In this document: piece after piece, positions 14,864-20,498 of the stretch
How the letters are laid out: each line of letters begins with the position of its first letter
Position numbering within the stretch: position 1 is the stretch's first letter
Position numbers and translations under genes: made by a program
Assembly (NCBI GenBank): GCA_038208115.1
Contig: JBBQZC010000007.1
Coordinates: 1 to 61,691, forward strand
Direction: 5' to 3'
Length of the DNA: 61,691 bases
Origin: Candidatus Moraniibacteriota bacterium
GTDB taxonomy: Bacteria; Patescibacteriota; Minisyncoccia; Moranbacterales; GCA-2747515
Notes under the pieces: generated by a model
The model's database searches: none
What the model saw: only the letters and a program-made list of their open reading frames with translations
What the model was told of the DNA's origin: nothing

Positions 14864-16618
14864 TTACGTAATCTGAGAAAGAAATTCTTCTACAGTCACA
14901 ACGCCTTGATCACCATTGTCACGTGAGCGCACGGCTACGGTTTTATCAGTCACTTCTTTCTCACCGACAACAAGCATGTAAGGTACTTTCTCATTTTGTC
15001 CACGGCGGATGCGTTTGCCGAGTGAATCAGACTCACCGTAGAGATCGACACGATAATCTTTGTCTCGCAATTGATCAACTACATTTTGTGCATAATCAGA
15101 AAACTTTTCGGAGACAGGGATTACGGCAATTTGCACTGGTGAAAGCCACAGTGGAAATGCTCCAGCAAAATGCTCGATAATCACTGAAAGGAATCTTTCC
15201 AATGAGCCGGCGATTGCACGATGAAGCATGACTGGCGTTTGTTTTGTATTAGTTTCATCAGTATATTCCAATTTAAATCGCTCTGGCATGATGAAGTCAA
15301 GCTGAGCTGTTGCTAATTGCCATTCTCGGCCGATTGCATCACGAAACATGAAGTCCAGTTTAGGACCATAAAATGCAGCTTCACCCTCTACTCTTTTGTA
15401 AGGCAATTTTTCTTTTTTTGCAATCGACTCAAGAATTTCCTCTGCACGATCCCATTTTTGTGGGTCTCCGAGATACTTCTCTGGTGTTTTCGAATCACGT
15501 ACAGATACGGATACCCAATAGTCACCATCATTGAACATATTAAGTGAGGTGTAGAAATCTTTGATCACTGATACAATACCCCCTACTTCAGCTTCGATCT
15601 GATCAGGCGTACAAAATACATGTCCATCATCTTGAGAAATCGATCGTACGCGAGATAGTCCAAGTAGCTCTCCCGCTTGTTCATCACGATAGACCATGGT
15701 CGTTTCCATAAAACGTACTGGGAGATCGCGATACGAACGTTGTTTTGATGCAAAAATTTGCGTGTGATGTGGACAGTTCATTGGTTTCATGACAAATTCT
15801 TGGTCTGATTGCCCTTTAACTTTGAAGAGTTCATCACCAAATTTATCCCAGTGTCCGGATGTCATATAAAGTTCTTTCTTTGTGATGTGTGGGATAGTAA
15901 CTTTTTGATAACCAAACTTTTTTTGAAGATTCTGAATTTTATCAACAATCAAATCTCGCAATAGCGTGCCTTTTGGAGTAAAAAGAGGAAGTCCAGCACC
16001 GACAAGATCTGAAAAAGTGAAAAGATCAAGCTCTTTGCCGAGCTTCCGATGATCACGTTTTTTTGCTTCTTCAATGCGAGCTAGGTGGATATCTAATTCT
16101 TCTTTTGAGTCAAAGAGTATGCCGTAGATGCGCGTAAGTTGCTCACGTTTTTCGTCACTTTTCCAATATGCACCAGCAAGACGAGTGATTTTGAGTGCAG
16201 ATGCATCAATTTCTCCAGAGTTTTTCACATGGGGTCCACGACACAGATCGTCGAAATCTTTGGAGGTAAATAGTGATACTGTTTTTTCTCCTGTAAGTGC
16301 TAAGTCACTGATAATTTCGACTTTGTATTTTTGATCGAGGGATGTAAATTTTTCTTTCGCTTCAGCAATAGATAATTCAGATCGTTCAAATGGTATTTTC
16401 TGTCCAATGAATTTTTTCATTCTTTTTTCTAGTTGCTTGAGATCAGCTTCGGTGATAGGTTGAGATGATTCGATGTCATAATAAAATCCATCATCGATTA
16501 CTGGTCCGATGCCAAATCGCGCATCAGGACGGAGGTCATGTACTGCCATAGCTAAGAGATGGGCTGCAGAATGTCTTTTTTGTGAAAGTTCACTTGCGTG
16601 ATCGTGTGTGCTACACAT
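14864..16618 (-). CDS. thrS: threonyl-tRNA synthetase
   Basis: RHSAAHL, DLCRGPH, RDHRKLG, KPMNCPHH, GEAAFYGPKLD, HRAIAGSLERF. Confidence 0.98.
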   Translation of the reverse strand: MCSTHDHASELSQKRHSAAHLLAMAVHDLRPDARFGIGPVIDDGFYYDIESSQPITEADLKQLEKRMKKFIGQKIPFERSELSIAEAKEKFTSLDQKYKVEIISDLALTGEKTVSLFTSKDFDDLCRGPHVKNSGEIDASALKITRLAGAYWKSDEKREQLTRIYGILFDSKEELDIHLARIEEAKKRDHRKLGKELDLFTFSDLVGAGLPLFTPKGTLLRDLIVDKIQNLQKKFGYQKVTIPHITKKELYMTSGHWDKFGDELFKVKGQSDQEFVMKPMNCPHHTQIFASKQRSYRDLPVRFMETTMVYRDEQAGELLGLSRVRSISQDDGHVFCTPDQIEAEVGGIVSVIKDFYTSLNMFNDGDYWVSVSVRDSKTPEKYLGDPQKWDRAEEILESIAKKEKLPYKRVEGEAAFYGPKLDFMFRDAIGREWQLATAQLDFIMPERFKLEYTDETNTKQTPVMLHRAIAGSLERFLSVIIEHFAGAFPLWLSPVQIAVIPVSEKFSDYAQNVVDQLRDKDYRVDLYGESDSLGKRIRRGQNEKVPYMLVVGEKEVTDKTVAVRSRDNGDQGVVTVEEFLSQIT

Positions 16619-16744
16619 ATGGTTTTTCGATTAATAGATTATTATATTAAGCAGGAGGTGATGATATCACTTGTCTGCTAATACAGAGATCAATTTTGTT
16701 GTGACAAAAATTAAAAAGCGTCTACAACAAAAAATGAAATGCGT

Positions 16745-16880
16745 GTTACTGAGACCCTCCAGTGAGAAGGGCGGTTCCACTCAGTTTCCCGATATTTGTT
16801 GTGGGCGCTCTTTATATGCAACTTACGCGTGCAGTTTCTGCGCAGACTCCATAGATAGTGAGGCTATATCAACATCTGTA
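16745..16880 (-). promoter_or_regulatory. T-box riboswitch (Thr) in the thrS leader
   Basis: Minus strand AAACTGAG-TGGAACC-GCCC...GGGT-CTCAGT forms the antiterminator with a UGGN bulge. A short stem I carries ACT in its apical loop. Confidence 0.75.
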
Positions 16881-16976
16881 TTATATTGTACTGTTATTGT
16901 GTCACATTCTAAGACAGTGTCAAGTATTGACATATTACACGAAATATGCTATAATCGAACGTTAGTGTCAAAAAAG

Positions 16977-19900
16977 CTATTTTTCATGTATGATTGCCGA
17001 CGAATCAATAAATTCATGCAGTTGCGAAGCACATTTTTCCGTGTAATCAATTACATATGAGGTTTTCATTTTTTGACCATTGTGCACGAGAAAAATCGTC
17101 ACACCACCTTTATCACAATGATCAAGAATTGATTTTATGTGAGTGATTACGTCATGTGCGCTATCGTCTGGCAAAGTGATGAATAATTTTGTTTTATTAA
17201 TCGTTGCACTTTTTTCTTTTTTCATCTGTGCACGTTTTTCTTTTGTGTCTCCATATTTTTTGCGTGTGGACATAATGTCTTTTGCATAGTCATTCTTTTC
17301 AGCAGCGATTTCCTCGATCTCATTAGCGATGAACTTGAGCTCATCATCTTTATCAGAAAGATTACCTTTGAGCACGATGGCGCGACCCTCAGTGAGGAGA
17401 TCTTTATGCGCTTCGAGCATTTTGGGAAATATGAGACATTCTGTTGTGCTTTTTCCATCTTCCAATGTGAGAAATGCCATATTTTTTCCACTTTTTGTCA
17501 ATATGATTTTTACTGCAATGACAATGCCACCAATCGTGATCATTTTATTTGCATTTTCTTTATTGAGCTCGTGGAGAGGTGTACACATATAATCGAGGAA
17601 ATCTCGATACTCATTAGAAGGATGATCTGAAATATAGAGTCCCATTAATTGTTTTTCCCATGCAAGGTGTTGTCTTTTGCCAGAATCAATGCCTTTTTTA
17701 ATTTTAATTTCTGCGCGAGAAAGGAGAGACGCGCCAAATAGTGAATCCTGATTTGACTTGGAATGTGTTCTTAGCTCTTTGATAAATATAAGGATGTTTT
17801 CACTGCTTGCTAAAATATCATCACGTTTTGCAAAACTATCAAATGCACCAACCATTGCTAATGCTTCCACCGATTTTTTATTGAGATCTCTCGAGCCAAC
17901 GCGTGAGCAGAGATCAGTAAGATCTTTATATTTACCATTTCGCTTGCGTTCAGCGACAATCTCTTTGGCAATGGGGCGACCGACATTCTTGATGGCGTTG
18001 AGTCCAAAACGAATGCGAGGGCTTTTCTTTTCAGCGTCATCTTCAGTGTAGATTACTGCAAACTCTTGAAAGCTCTCGTTGATGTCTGGAGGAAGTACTG
18101 TGATTTCCATTTCACGACACTCAGCAGCTTCAATTGCAATACGATCAGTGTTTCCTTGGTCAGATGTCATGAGTGCTGCCATAAATTCTGCAGGATAGTG
18201 TGCCTTGAGATACGCAGTTTGATAACCGATGAGGCCGTAACATGCGGCATGTGAGCGATTAAATCCATAACCAGCAAATGGTTCAATGAATGCAAAAACT
18301 TTTTCTGCAATTTCTTTTTTCACGCCGTGTGTGACGCAACCTTCTACAAATTTAATTTTTTGCTCTTTGATAAGTTTGAGAATTTTTTTCCCCATAGCTT
18401 TACGCAAAATATCAGCTTCACCTAATGTAAAACCAGCAAGATCTTGCGCGATACGCATAACTTGCTCCTGATAAACTGCCACGCCATAAGTATCAGCGAG
18501 GATTGCTTCAAGTTTGGGATGAAGGTATGTAACTTTCTTCTTGCCATGTTTGCCATCGACAAAATCAGGAATCCATTCCATCGGACCCGGCCGATAGAGA
18601 GCAACCATAGCGATGATATCTTCAAGTACAGTTGGTTTTAGACCTTTGAGATATCTTTTCATACCACTAGATTCCAATTGAAATACGCCCGTGGTATGAG
18701 CTTCTTGGAGGAGTGTGTACGTTTTTGCATCATCAAGAGGAATTTTCTCGATGTCGATCTTTTGACCATGGATTTTTTTGACGATGCGAAGGGTGTTTTG
18801 AATAATTGTTAAGTTTTTAAGTCCGAGAAAATCCATTTTGAGAAGGCCAATCTTTTCTACTGCGGAAAATTTGGTGCTTGATGCATATTGTGTGACAGTT
18901 GCTTCATCATTTCCTGAAACTCGTTGCAAAGCAGTATATTCTACGACAGGTTTGTCAGTAATTACCACGCCACATGCATGTACTGATGAATGTCGACAGA
19001 GACCCTCAAGTCGATGTGCAGTGTCGATGAGTTCGCGTGCGTCACTATTTTCTTTGTGAAGGCGTTTAAAGTCTGGCACTTCTGCAAGAGCCTTGTCCAT
19101 TGATGTCAGCTCTGGGATGAGTTTAGCAACTTGATCACAAAAGATATATGCAAATCCGAGTGCGCGACCCGCATCACGCACAGCAGCACGGGCAGCCATA
19201 GTACCAAATGTAATGATCTGAGCGACGTGATCAGCGCCGTATGTCTTGCGAACATAAGCAAGTACATCATCGCGTCGATCATCAGCAAAATCCATATCAA
19301 CATCGGGCATGGAGACACGCTCAGGATTGAGGAATCGTTCAAAGAGTAACTTATATTCGATGGGATCTATGTTGGTGATACCAGTGAGATACGATACAAA
19401 TGAACCTGCAGCACTTCCACGTCCAGGTCCTACGACGATGCCATCATTTTTAGCCCAGTTGACGAAATCTTGGACAATAAGGAAGTATGAAGCATAACCA
19501 GTTTTTTTGATAACATCCAATTCATAATTCATGCGTTGTCTTTGGAGGCTTGTAATATTGTCGCTAAAATGTTTTTTAAGCCCAATTTCCGAGATGTCAC
19601 GGAGATGTTCGTCAGCAGTCTTGCCCTCTGGGAGAGGAAAGGATGGTAATTTCGTGTGACCGAGCTCGAGTTCAAATGTGCATCTTTGTGCGATGATGTC
19701 AGTATTATCGATGGCTTCTGGCACGTCAGCAAAAATTACACGAAGATCTTTTTCTGTACGAAGAGATAAATTAAAATGCTTCAATGTCGGACGATCGCCT
19801 TCATTGACTTTGCGATTCAATTGGATGCACAAGAGGACATCATGGATGTCACGATCTTCTTTTTTAATATAATAAACGTCTCCGCATACAACGAGAGGAA

Positions 19901-20498
19901 TACCGGTTTTTTTGCTAATTTTTTTGAGTCCGTTATTGATTTTTAGTTGTGGGAGATGATCAGGATGATCTTGCAACTCAAGGTAAAAATTATTTTGACC
20001 AAAAATATTGTTATAGAGAAGTGCTTTTTCAGTTGCTTTGTCGATTCCATCATGTGCAATAAATTCACTGACTTCTCCTTCTCCATTGCCCGAGAGTGCA
20101 ATGAGTCCTTCAGAATATTTGCGGAGAACATCATAATCAACACGTGGTTTGAAATAAAATCCGTCCAAGTGAGCAATTGTAATTATTTTGAGAAGATTTT
20201 TATAACCAATTTCATTTTGTACCAATAAGACAAGTTGATTGACTTTGCGGGATTGCGGTGATGCAGTTTGATGATCCATGCCCGCAGGCGCAACGAGAAT
20301 TTCTGCTCCGATAATTGGCTTAATTCCTCGTTCTTTAGCTTTGACTGATAGTTCCACCGCACCGTAAACGGCATTTTTATCAGTAAGAGCCATCGCTTTC
20401 ATGCCATTTTTCTCTGCAGCGTCCAAAAGATCGTCGATTTTGGCAAGACCGTGTAAAAGAGAATAATCAGAATGAACGTGGAGATGTGTGAATGACAT
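16977..20498 (-). CDS. dnaE: DNA polymerase III alpha subunit
   Basis: PHP domain FTHLHVHSDYS, GPGRGSAAGS, FERFLNPERVSMPDVDMDF, YGFNRSHA. Confidence 0.98.
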   Translation of the reverse strand: MSFTHLHVHSDYSLLHGLAKIDDLLDAAEKNGMKAMALTDKNAVYGAVELSVKAKERGIKPIIGAEILVAPAGMDHQTASPQSRKVNQLVLLVQNEIGYKNLLKIITIAHLDGFYFKPRVDYDVLRKYSEGLIALSGNGEGEVSEFIAHDGIDKATEKALLYNNIFGQNNFYLELQDHPDHLPQLKINNGLKKISKKTGIPLVVCGDVYYIKKEDRDIHDVLLCIQLNRKVNEGDRPTLKHFNLSLRTEKDLRVIFADVPEAIDNTDIIAQRCTFELELGHTKLPSFPLPEGKTADEHLRDISEIGLKKHFSDNITSLQRQRMNYELDVIKKTGYASYFLIVQDFVNWAKNDGIVVGPGRGSAAGSFVSYLTGITNIDPIEYKLLFERFLNPERVSMPDVDMDFADDRRDDVLAYVRKTYGADHVAQIITFGTMAARAAVRDAGRALGFAYIFCDQVAKLIPELTSMDKALAEVPDFKRLHKENSDARELIDTAHRLEGLCRHSSVHACGVVITDKPVVEYTALQRVSGNDEATVTQYASSTKFSAVEKIGLLKMDFLGLKNLTIIQNTLRIVKKIHGQKIDIEKIPLDDAKTYTLLQEAHTTGVFQLESSGMKRYLKGLKPTVLEDIIAMVALYRPGPMEWIPDFVDGKHGKKKVTYLHPKLEAILADTYGVAVYQEQVMRIAQDLAGFTLGEADILRKAMGKKILKLIKEQKIKFVEGCVTHGVKKEIAEKVFAFIEPFAGYGFNRSHAACYGLIGYQTAYLKAHYPAEFMAALMTSDQGNTDRIAIEAAECREMEITVLPPDINESFQEFAVIYTEDDAEKKSPRIRFGLNAIKNVGRPIAKEIVAERKRNGKYKDLTDLCSRVGSRDLNKKSVEALAMVGAFDSFAKRDDILASSENILIFIKELRTHSKSNQDSLFGASLLSRAEIKIKKGIDSGKRQHLAWEKQLMGLYISDHPSNEYRDFLDYMCTPLHELNKENANKMITIGGIVIAVKIILTKSGKNMAFLTLEDGKSTTECLIFPKMLEAHKDLLTEGRAIVLKGNLSDKDDELKFIANEIEEIAAEKNDYAKDIMSTRKKYGDTKEKRAQMKKEKSATINKTKLFITLPDDSAHDVITHIKSILDHCDKGGVTIFLVHNGQKMKTSYVIDYTEKCASQLHEFIDSSAIIHEK

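Follow-up and report, generated by a model that had tools for sequence, protein, structure and literature searches.

Can a riboswitch that senses tRNA act on transcription after losing nearly all of its first stem? The question is raised by a stretch of DNA from a Candidatus Moraniibacteriota bacterium (assembly GCA_038208115.1, contig JBBQZC010000007.1, positions 1–61,691; the whole 61,691-nt stretch is called the window below). On its minus strand, a 358-nt spacer between dnaE (16977–20498), lying upstream, and thrS, the threonyl-tRNA synthetase (ThrRS) gene lying downstream, holds a T-box leader located 88–263 nt 5′ of the thrS start codon and on the same strand. We are highly confident that this leader is a T-box and moderately confident of the switching mechanism set out below; that it is a threonine-specific T-box riboswitch controlling thrS through transcription attenuation we consider very likely.

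An initial annotation, made from the letters of the sequence alone, had proposed such an element at 16745–16880. All the parts that it listed (helices, GA-containing internal loop, apical loop, Stem III and antiterminator) were found on the minus strand where it had placed them. The functional unit runs about 40 nt past the given span, to the terminator at 16731–16706.

A conserved leader upstream of thrS

We drew 160 thrS loci belonging to the candidate phyla radiation (CPR) from genome and metagenome collections and added ten close loci through exact protein look-ups. Leader positions (p) were counted from 16881, such that the window coordinate equals 16882 − p. A simple motif scan placed GGUGGAACC or AGUGGAACC 5′ of thrS in almost half of the fetched loci, and eleven close relatives, with 64–94% ThrRS identity, were found to retain the leader and to be alignable from Stem I through the terminator. 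Using a covariance model built on 11 leaders from the window's clade (R1; hit threshold E < 0.005), we identified 61 leaders in CPR genomes, every one of them upstream of thrS and on its strand. Among the 35 best leaders, 94.8% of the cells were paired, compared with 63% in shuffles, 29 of the 30 base pairs showed compensatory changes and sliding the partners by one column cut the pairing to 43–46%; the alignments behind these counts were fitted to the model structure, which favors that structure. An independent MAFFT alignment of 11 sequences gave the same picture on a smaller scale. The initial annotation had suggested a check for covariation across CPR thrS leaders, and the check bears it out; the gene behind the leader has the Pfam domains of ThrRS.

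The Rfam model RF00230 covers 16747–16881 of the minus strand end to end, with 76 Stem I model positions deleted. Searching T-box models had been suggested at the outset, and the search succeeded in span but not in score: the match reached 26.4 bits (E = 5e-4 in the 501-nt stretch searched) against a gathering score of 93. Such a match alone is only a hint, and the case was therefore built on the relatives. At the gathering cut-off, Rfam gave no match in the window nor in 19–20 related CPR leaders or loci, a test that tells little except how strict the cut-off is. The thrS leader of Dictyobacter aurantiacus (Chloroflexota; L079 1315), which carries GGGUGGAACCACGG and was meant as a positive control, also stayed under 93 bits, and the cut-off therefore overlooks T-boxes outside the CPR as well.

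The decoding end of the leader consists of the following elements.

16843–16878, minus strand: ultrashort Stem I, 36 nt, recognized from the sequence, with both helices covarying
16878–16874 with 16847–16843 (p4–8 with p35–39), minus strand: C-stem, 5 bp, CAGAU/GUCUG
16873–16869 opposite 16849–16848, minus strand: kink-turn (K-turn)-like motif, GUUGA opposite GA, with a bulge GUU (16873–16871) and G·A and A·G pairs from 16870–16869 and 16849–16848
16868–16864 with 16854–16850 (p14–18 with p28–32), minus strand: upper stem, 5 bp, AUAG/CUAU plus a U·G pair
16863–16855, minus strand: 9-nt end loop CCUCACUAU
16856–16859, minus strand: specifier, the threonine codon ACU (16859–16857) with the purine A (16856), within the apical loop and placed by alignment with homologous loops

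Both helices of Stem I change in sequence while keeping their pairing. The C-stem appears in relatives as CAGAU/GUCUG, CAUGC/GCAUG, CACGC/GCGUG and CAAAC/GUUUG, and the upper stem as AUAG/CUAU, GUAG/CUAC, GCAG/CUGC, GUGG/CCAC and GCGG/CCGC. The sequence between them, a bulge followed by GA opposite GA and flanked by the covarying helices, suggests that the base of Stem I forms a K-turn (GA motif). The distal platform of interdigitated T-loops that contacts the tRNA elbow is not present, and Stem I stops at the 9-nt specifier loop; the ultrashort stem with its codon in the end loop, as first described, agrees with the deletion of most of Stem I in the RF00230 match.

The initial annotation had staked its threonine specificity on the conservation of ACN in homologues, and at least 55 of the 61 leaders do keep ACN followed by a purine inside a closed hairpin loop. 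AC stays fixed while the third codon position drifts through all four bases: ACC-A is found in about 45–50 leaders, ACU-A in the window and in L161, L001 and L036, ACA in L103 and ACG in L047. In many lineages, the loop is 7 nt long (CUACCAA) and resembles an anticodon loop in which the codon takes the position of the anticodon.

Immediately after Stem I, the strand can fold into a pseudoknot.

16817–16842, minus strand: H-type pseudoknot, probably of the Stem IIA/B kind, detected by covariation and a shuffle test
16842–16840 with 16828–16826 (p40–42 with p54–56), minus strand: pseudoknot helix S1, CGC with GCG
16833–16830 with 16820–16817 (p49–52 with p62–65), minus strand: pseudoknot helix S2, UGCA with UGCA
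16827–16823, minus strand: F-box-like CGUAA, after S1

In the 11-leader alignment, the S1 pair 42/54 covaries between C-G and U-A. The sequence of S2 diverges among lineages and is nevertheless complementary in each, with UGCA/UGCA, GGUGU/ACACC, AUGUGCA/UGCACAU, UUGCC/GGCAA, GAACUA/UAGUUC, CCUAUG/CAUGGG and others. In 24 of 59 leaders, the best pseudoknot attains the 5% level of the shuffles; the value for the window is 0.03. The element is probably equivalent to Stem IIA/B of other T-boxes, which it resembles in layout and, through CGUAA, in the F-box (CGUCA in M. tuberculosis ileS; PMC11297988). The pseudoknot strand at 16842 abuts the last Stem I base, 16843, with zero nucleotides between them, which leaves no room for Stem II with its S-turn. 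The "stem II-like region" of the initial annotation is therefore right about a structured region and better read as a pseudoknot. We also considered the "Stem II" that cmscan placed at 16843–16825 (GCGCAG...CUGCACGCG) and rejected it: its upper pairs are lost in relatives, in which the pseudoknot helices are kept.

The part of the leader facing the tRNA 3′ end, the discriminator, has these components.

16786–16813, minus strand: 5′ half of the discriminator, with AAA (16813–16811), the purine string GAGCG (16810–16806, fitting RRRxG) and AA (16787–16786)
16805–16803 with 16790–16788, minus strand: Stem III, CCC with GGG, around a 12-nt loop ACAACAAAUAUC (16802–16791)
16748–16785, minus strand: antiterminator, (A)CUGAG (16785–16780), UGGAACC, GCCCUUC-UCACU-GGAGGGU (16772–16754) and CUCAG(U) (16753–16748)
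16785–16780 with 16753–16748, minus strand: helix A1
16779–16773, minus strand: T-box bulge UGGAACC
16772–16766 with 16760–16754, minus strand: helix A2, with loop UCACU and basal pair G16772·U16754

An RRRxG–Stem III–AA motif and a G·U pair at the base of A2 are named features of the T-box discriminator, and the antiterminator hardly binds tRNA when Stem III is absent (PMC7583486). The window has the motif as GAGCG-CCC...GGG-AA and it is kept in the family: 60 of the 61 leaders have AA after Stem III, and each of the three pairs of Stem III covaries between lineages. The bulge reads UGGAACC in 60 of the 61, 12 of the 13 pairs in A1 and A2 have changed on both sides in the 35-leader alignment, and the basal A2 pair is G·U in 30 of the 61 leaders and Watson–Crick in the remainder.

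Terminator, promoter-like site and proposed switch

Downstream of the antiterminator, the leader ends in a helix that reaches back across it.

16706–16731, minus strand: terminator 3′ strand UUUGUUGUAGACGCUUUUUA (16731–16712) and tail, with U-runs at 16717–16713 and 16710–16706
16795–16814 (p68–87), minus strand: terminator 5′ strand UAAAGAGCGCCCACAACAAA, comprising the A-tract, the purine string and, from Stem III, the 5′ strand and most of the loop

The segment UUUGUUGUAGACGCUUUUUAAUUUUU begins 16 nt after A1, and in minimum free energy and evaluated structures 16731–16712 pair with 16814–16795 in a helix of 18 bp that is followed by CUUUUUAAUUUUU. The terminator together with A1 and A2 amounts to −31.7 kcal/mol, and Stem III together with A1 and A2 to −19.4 kcal/mol. 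Across 11 leaders, RNAalifold retains the basal 8 bp, in which the purine string pairs with CGCUUUUU, and the helix is 92% paired in the 11 relatives. Compensatory changes are few in the close family because the sequence is conserved, and the covariation argument for the terminator rests on the comparison between lineages.

For this comparison, we sorted the 61 leaders three ways by a simple energy rule. The terminator engages the Stem III side in 34 leaders, is of the canonical kind in 17 and is ambiguous in 10. The 34 comprise the window's clade, two more Paceibacteria-like groups and Saccharibacteria-type leaders, and the pairing sequences of these groups are unrelated (CCACCA/UGGUGG, AUCCAGU/ACUGGAU, CUCACC/GGUGAG and CCACGUGCC/GGCAGGUGG). 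The pairing includes at least three of the five purine-string bases in 31 of the 34 leaders and at least three loop bases in all 34. With the purine string omitted, the mean pairing energy is −11.7 kcal/mol for cognate 5′ and 3′ strands, compared with −6.7 kcal/mol for strands taken from other lineages; when each of 12 lineages was represented by a single leader, the observed mean was not reached in any of 20,000 permutations (p < 5e-5). We take the better cognate pairing as covariation evidence for a terminator helix on the Stem III side.

A terminator of the canonical arrangement, with the 3′ strands of A2 and A1 pairing with AGACGCUUU, was rejected: it reaches −9.8 kcal/mol in the window and −5 in L164 and L169 and is not conserved. 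Over the downstream 75 nt, the best pairing with the purine-string and Stem III side is −19.0 kcal/mol and conserved, against −9.8 kcal/mol with the A1 and A2 3′ strands. A possible additional helix, GAAA/AAACU ahead of A1 with UUUC/AGUUU of the spacer, would open part of A1 once the terminator has formed; most close relatives have it, but L170 and L002 do not.

The terminator 3′ strand (UUUUGUUGU, GAC) is also complementary to the Stem III loop sequence where it recurs downstream (GUC, ACAACAAAA at 16702–16694), the whole spanning 16731–16694 on the minus strand. Analogous hairpins occupy the terminator 3′ strand or the U-run in most close relatives, as in L161 (GACGU...ACGUC, with CAUUUUUCU/AGAAAAAUG) and L164 (GGUGCU...AGCGCU). 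The hairpin with ACAACAAAA forms too late to influence termination. Between the terminator and the thrS start, three relatives contain GC-rich palindromic modules of 150–250 nt (e.g. CCCUGCCUACCGGCAGGCAGG; L166 at about 1730–2000, L167 at about 1830–2000 and L001 at about 1260–1500), which look like small mobile or repeat elements.

The gene and the candidate promoter of the unit are as follows.

14864–16618, minus strand: thrS, the regulated gene, encoding threonyl-tRNA synthetase of 584 aa (Pfam tRNA_SAD, tRNA-synt_2b of the class II core, and HGTP_anticodon)
16896–16923, minus strand: promoter-like site found by consensus scan, TTGACA (16923–16918), a 16-nt spacer and CACAAT (16901–16896), with TG ahead of the −10 box

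The closest homologues of the protein are named threonine–tRNA ligase in Parcubacteria, Moranbacteria and Patescibacteria. The enzyme has no N-terminal TGS domain and starts with MCSTHDH..., about 15 residues ahead of the motif RHSAAHLLA; as the close homologues are all 577–608 aa long, the form without TGS is the normal one in the clade. The site at 16923–16896 probably serves as the thrS promoter, judging from its sequence. A further conserved TACAAT lies about 10 nt beyond CACAAT, and the pattern TTGACA-N17-nACAAU with a subsequent ACAAU is kept in the leaders of relatives.

On the opposite strand, we observed a perfect sigma-70-type promoter at 16927–16955 (plus strand; TTGACA, 17 nt, TATAAT, with TG), directed antisense toward the 3′ end of dnaE. 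It overlaps 16918–16932, and its −35 box and that of thrS together make the palindrome TGTCAAtacTTGACA. Divergent TTGACA-N17-TATAAT/TATTAT is also present in the relatives L161, L166 and L001. An antisense RNA could originate from this promoter, or the palindrome could act as an operator.

Based on these elements, we propose the following course of events. Transcription would start at the promoter around 16923–16896, and the nascent 36-nt Stem I would offer ACU and the adjacent A, in a loop resembling an anticodon loop, to the anticodon of tRNA-Thr, with the IIA/B-type pseudoknot adjoining. The discriminator would emerge next, in the order GAGCG, 3-bp Stem III, AA, A1, UGGAACC bulge and A2. 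We infer that the 3′ end of uncharged tRNA-Thr, expected to be UCCA, pairs with UGGA and that the purine string of Stem III latches onto the minor groove in the way seen in T-box complexes of known structure, so locking the purine string and Stem III. About 16 nt on, the polymerase would make UUUGUUGUAGACGC, a strand complementary to the purine string and to the 5′ strand and loop of Stem III, and then the U-runs. If tRNA-Thr is charged or absent, the strands should be free, the 3-bp Stem III would offer no resistance and the 18-bp helix would form at the U-tract and stop transcription before thrS. If the strands are latched, uncharged tRNA-Thr would sequester the terminator 5′ strand; the helix could then not form in time while the polymerase crosses the U-tract, and thrS would be transcribed. 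A1 and A2 may persist in both states and need not melt.

Weighing the attenuation model against its alternatives

Several points weigh against a working attenuator. With only 3 bp (−2.7 kcal/mol), Stem III is much less stable than the terminator, so that antitermination must be kinetic and dependent on tRNA; the published work demands a long Stem I for fast capture of the tRNA (PMC7583486), and the function of a form this small is therefore not assured. A structured insert of about 60 nt is unusual as the "loop" of a terminator, and in the close family most of the terminator helix is conserved without covariation, only four pairs being compensatory. The fitting of the alignments to the model, mentioned above, belongs here as well. 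A weak promoter-like site between the terminator and thrS (GTGATA, 18 nt, TATAAT at 16670–16641, minus strand), found by consensus scan and not conserved in relatives, could allow thrS to be expressed independently of the switch. Sequencing runs containing this stretch are DNA runs only, with no RNA run among them, and ARAGORN predicted zero tRNAs in the window and zero tRNA-Thr across the 170 loci.

The alternative that survives best is a decayed T-box relic that no longer switches and is kept for another reason, such as constitutive attenuation or mRNA stability, with the tRNA no longer in control. The leader has neither the elbow platform nor the Stem II S-turn, both needed for tRNA capture according to the literature, its Stem III is limited to 3 bp and its terminator need not unwind A1 or A2. 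A relic, however, would have to account for a specifier, a UGGAACC bulge, a purine string and an AA linker kept across 61 leaders of many lineages, with nearly all helices compensatory, and for a codon that remains ACN though its third base drifts. Such a pattern would be expected from purifying selection on tRNA sensing, and we regard the relic as improbable.

Smaller still is the chance that the leader acts on translation, as the actinobacterial ileS T-boxes do, with tRNA binding freeing the ribosome-binding site. The initial annotation had pointed to these T-boxes; the resemblance holds for the ultrashort Stem I with a specifier in its end loop, while the terminator and U-runs found here point to transcription. 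The T-boxes for which an ultrashort Stem I has been described to date are translational (PMC7583486), and the window supplies a GGAGG in the 3′ strand of A2 (16760–16756) and a sequence resembling an anti-Shine–Dalgarno (anti-SD), CACCUCCU, at 16660–16653. However, 130 nt separate the AUG from the antiterminator and 88 nt separate it from the U-tract, and a Shine–Dalgarno (SD) sequence is missing ahead of it (AAAAACCAUAUG), as it is in the relatives. The distance from T-box to start varies between about 95 and 343 nt in relatives, with unrelated repeat-like inserts. The conserved alternative helix leads into a U-tract both in the window and in its relatives. Sequestration of GGAGG by CACCUCCU was rejected as a candidate, CACCUCCU being absent from the relatives; in the window, it sits on the minus strand within a small hairpin.

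An operator bound by protein fares worse again. The leader would then contain a tRNA-like hairpin bound by ThrRS itself, with its likeness to a T-box being secondary. The Escherichia coli thrS operator is a precedent for ThrRS binding a tRNA-like hairpin in its own leader, and the end loop of Stem I, with its related 7-nt form CUACCAA, resembles an anticodon loop. The loop nevertheless holds a codon (ACU or ACC) and none of the threonine anticodons (GGU, UGU or CGU), and is therefore complementary to tRNA-Thr and not a mimic of it; a full discriminator with its UGGAACC bulge would have no role. We find this explanation barely credible. A chance resemblance in an AT-rich spacer, for which one could cite the Rfam score far under the gathering value and the window's want of a gathering-level match, is effectively refuted by the position upstream of thrS, the threonine codon in the loop, the 61 homologous leaders and their strong covariation.

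Relation to known T-boxes and distribution in the CPR

Transcription attenuation by a T-box being the preferred reading, we compared the leader with T-boxes of known mode. With the canonical transcriptional T-boxes (RF00230; Bacillus subtilis thrS and tyrS), it shares the position in an aminoacyl-tRNA synthetase leader, the K-turn at the base of Stem I, the specifier with its purine, the IIA/B-type pseudoknot with an F-box-like CGUAA, the RRRxG–Stem III–AA motif, the A1/UGGNACC/A2 antiterminator with a G·U pair at the base of A2, and an intrinsic terminator. It differs in a Stem I of 36 nt that ends at the specifier, without elbow platform, and in having no Stem II S-turn. In the canonical arrangement, the terminator 5′ strand consists of the 3′ strands of A1 and A2 (PMC7583486), whereas that of the window consists of the purine string and Stem III and lies upstream of the antiterminator.

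The actinobacterial ileS T-boxes of Mycobacterium tuberculosis and M. smegmatis (Sherwood et al. 2015, as cited in PMC7583486 and PMC11297988) share the truncated Stem I without elbow motif and with the specifier near or at its end, as well as the IIA/B pseudoknot with F-box (CGUCA in M. tuberculosis, CGUAA here) and the same discriminator core (PMC11297988). They act on translation through SD sequestration, recognize tRNA-Ile and use the S-turn of Stem II to hold the codon–anticodon helix (PMC7583486, PMC11297988). By contrast, the window's leader has no Stem II, a threonine specifier and a terminator with a U-tract, belongs to another phylum and lacks the SD/anti-SD sequestrator. The glyQS T-boxes of Bacillus and Geobacillus are also transcriptional and also without the Stem II S-turn, which they can afford because their GGC:GCC codon–anticodon helix is strong (PMC7583486). 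A pairing of ACC with GGU would have two G-C pairs, while the window's ACU would need a G·U wobble with a GGU anticodon. The glyQS T-boxes have a long Stem I with an elbow platform and no IIA/B pseudoknot; the window's leader is the reverse.

Transcriptional T-boxes are held to need a long Stem I for quick capture of the tRNA elbow, and forms with a truncated Stem I are held to be translational and reliant on the Stem II S-turn (PMC7583486, PMC11297988). The database TBDB ran its short-Stem-I model only on Actinobacteria and on hits of the Rfam model. A search of the published literature for T-boxes in CPR, Patescibacteria, Saccharibacteria, Parcubacteria and TM7 returned nothing relevant, and we found no published description of such a leader. 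The initial annotation had expected such an element to be unusual in a CPR-type genome; it is unusual when set against the literature but common among the thrS leaders of the CPR.

The CPR thrS loci also show other arrangements. A second decoding architecture, in which a helix GAGAUUG...CCUAAUCUG encloses a specifier hairpin with the loop CUACCAA and another hairpin, was seen in L003, L014, L021, L040, L054, L084, L091, L095 and L118; it has no K-turn or pseudoknot pattern and has a canonical terminator. In Saccharibacteria-type loci (L034, L041, L060, L077, L140 and others), a tRNA gene lies about 100 nt upstream of the thrS T-box. Of the 26 tRNAs that ARAGORN predicted in all loci, 18 are tRNA-Val.

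In the window's leader and about 60 relatives, a terminator is combined with a Stem I supported by neither an elbow platform nor a Stem II S-turn. They may represent a distinct architectural class of T-box widespread in Patescibacteria, in which a K-turn hairpin and a IIA/B pseudoknot decode the tRNA without elbow platform or Stem II, and a "latch-capture" terminator reads the decision at the purine latch and not through strand exchange in the antiterminator; we see the case for such a class as evenly poised. Standard models, those of Rfam and, by its stated method, that of TBDB, miss such leaders, and riboswitch censuses therefore under-count the CPR bacteria. A natural switch this compact could seed the inducible expression tools that are missing from Patescibacteria genetics (PMC11665869), and, if they work, these leaders shift the lower bound for tRNA sensors that act co-transcriptionally.

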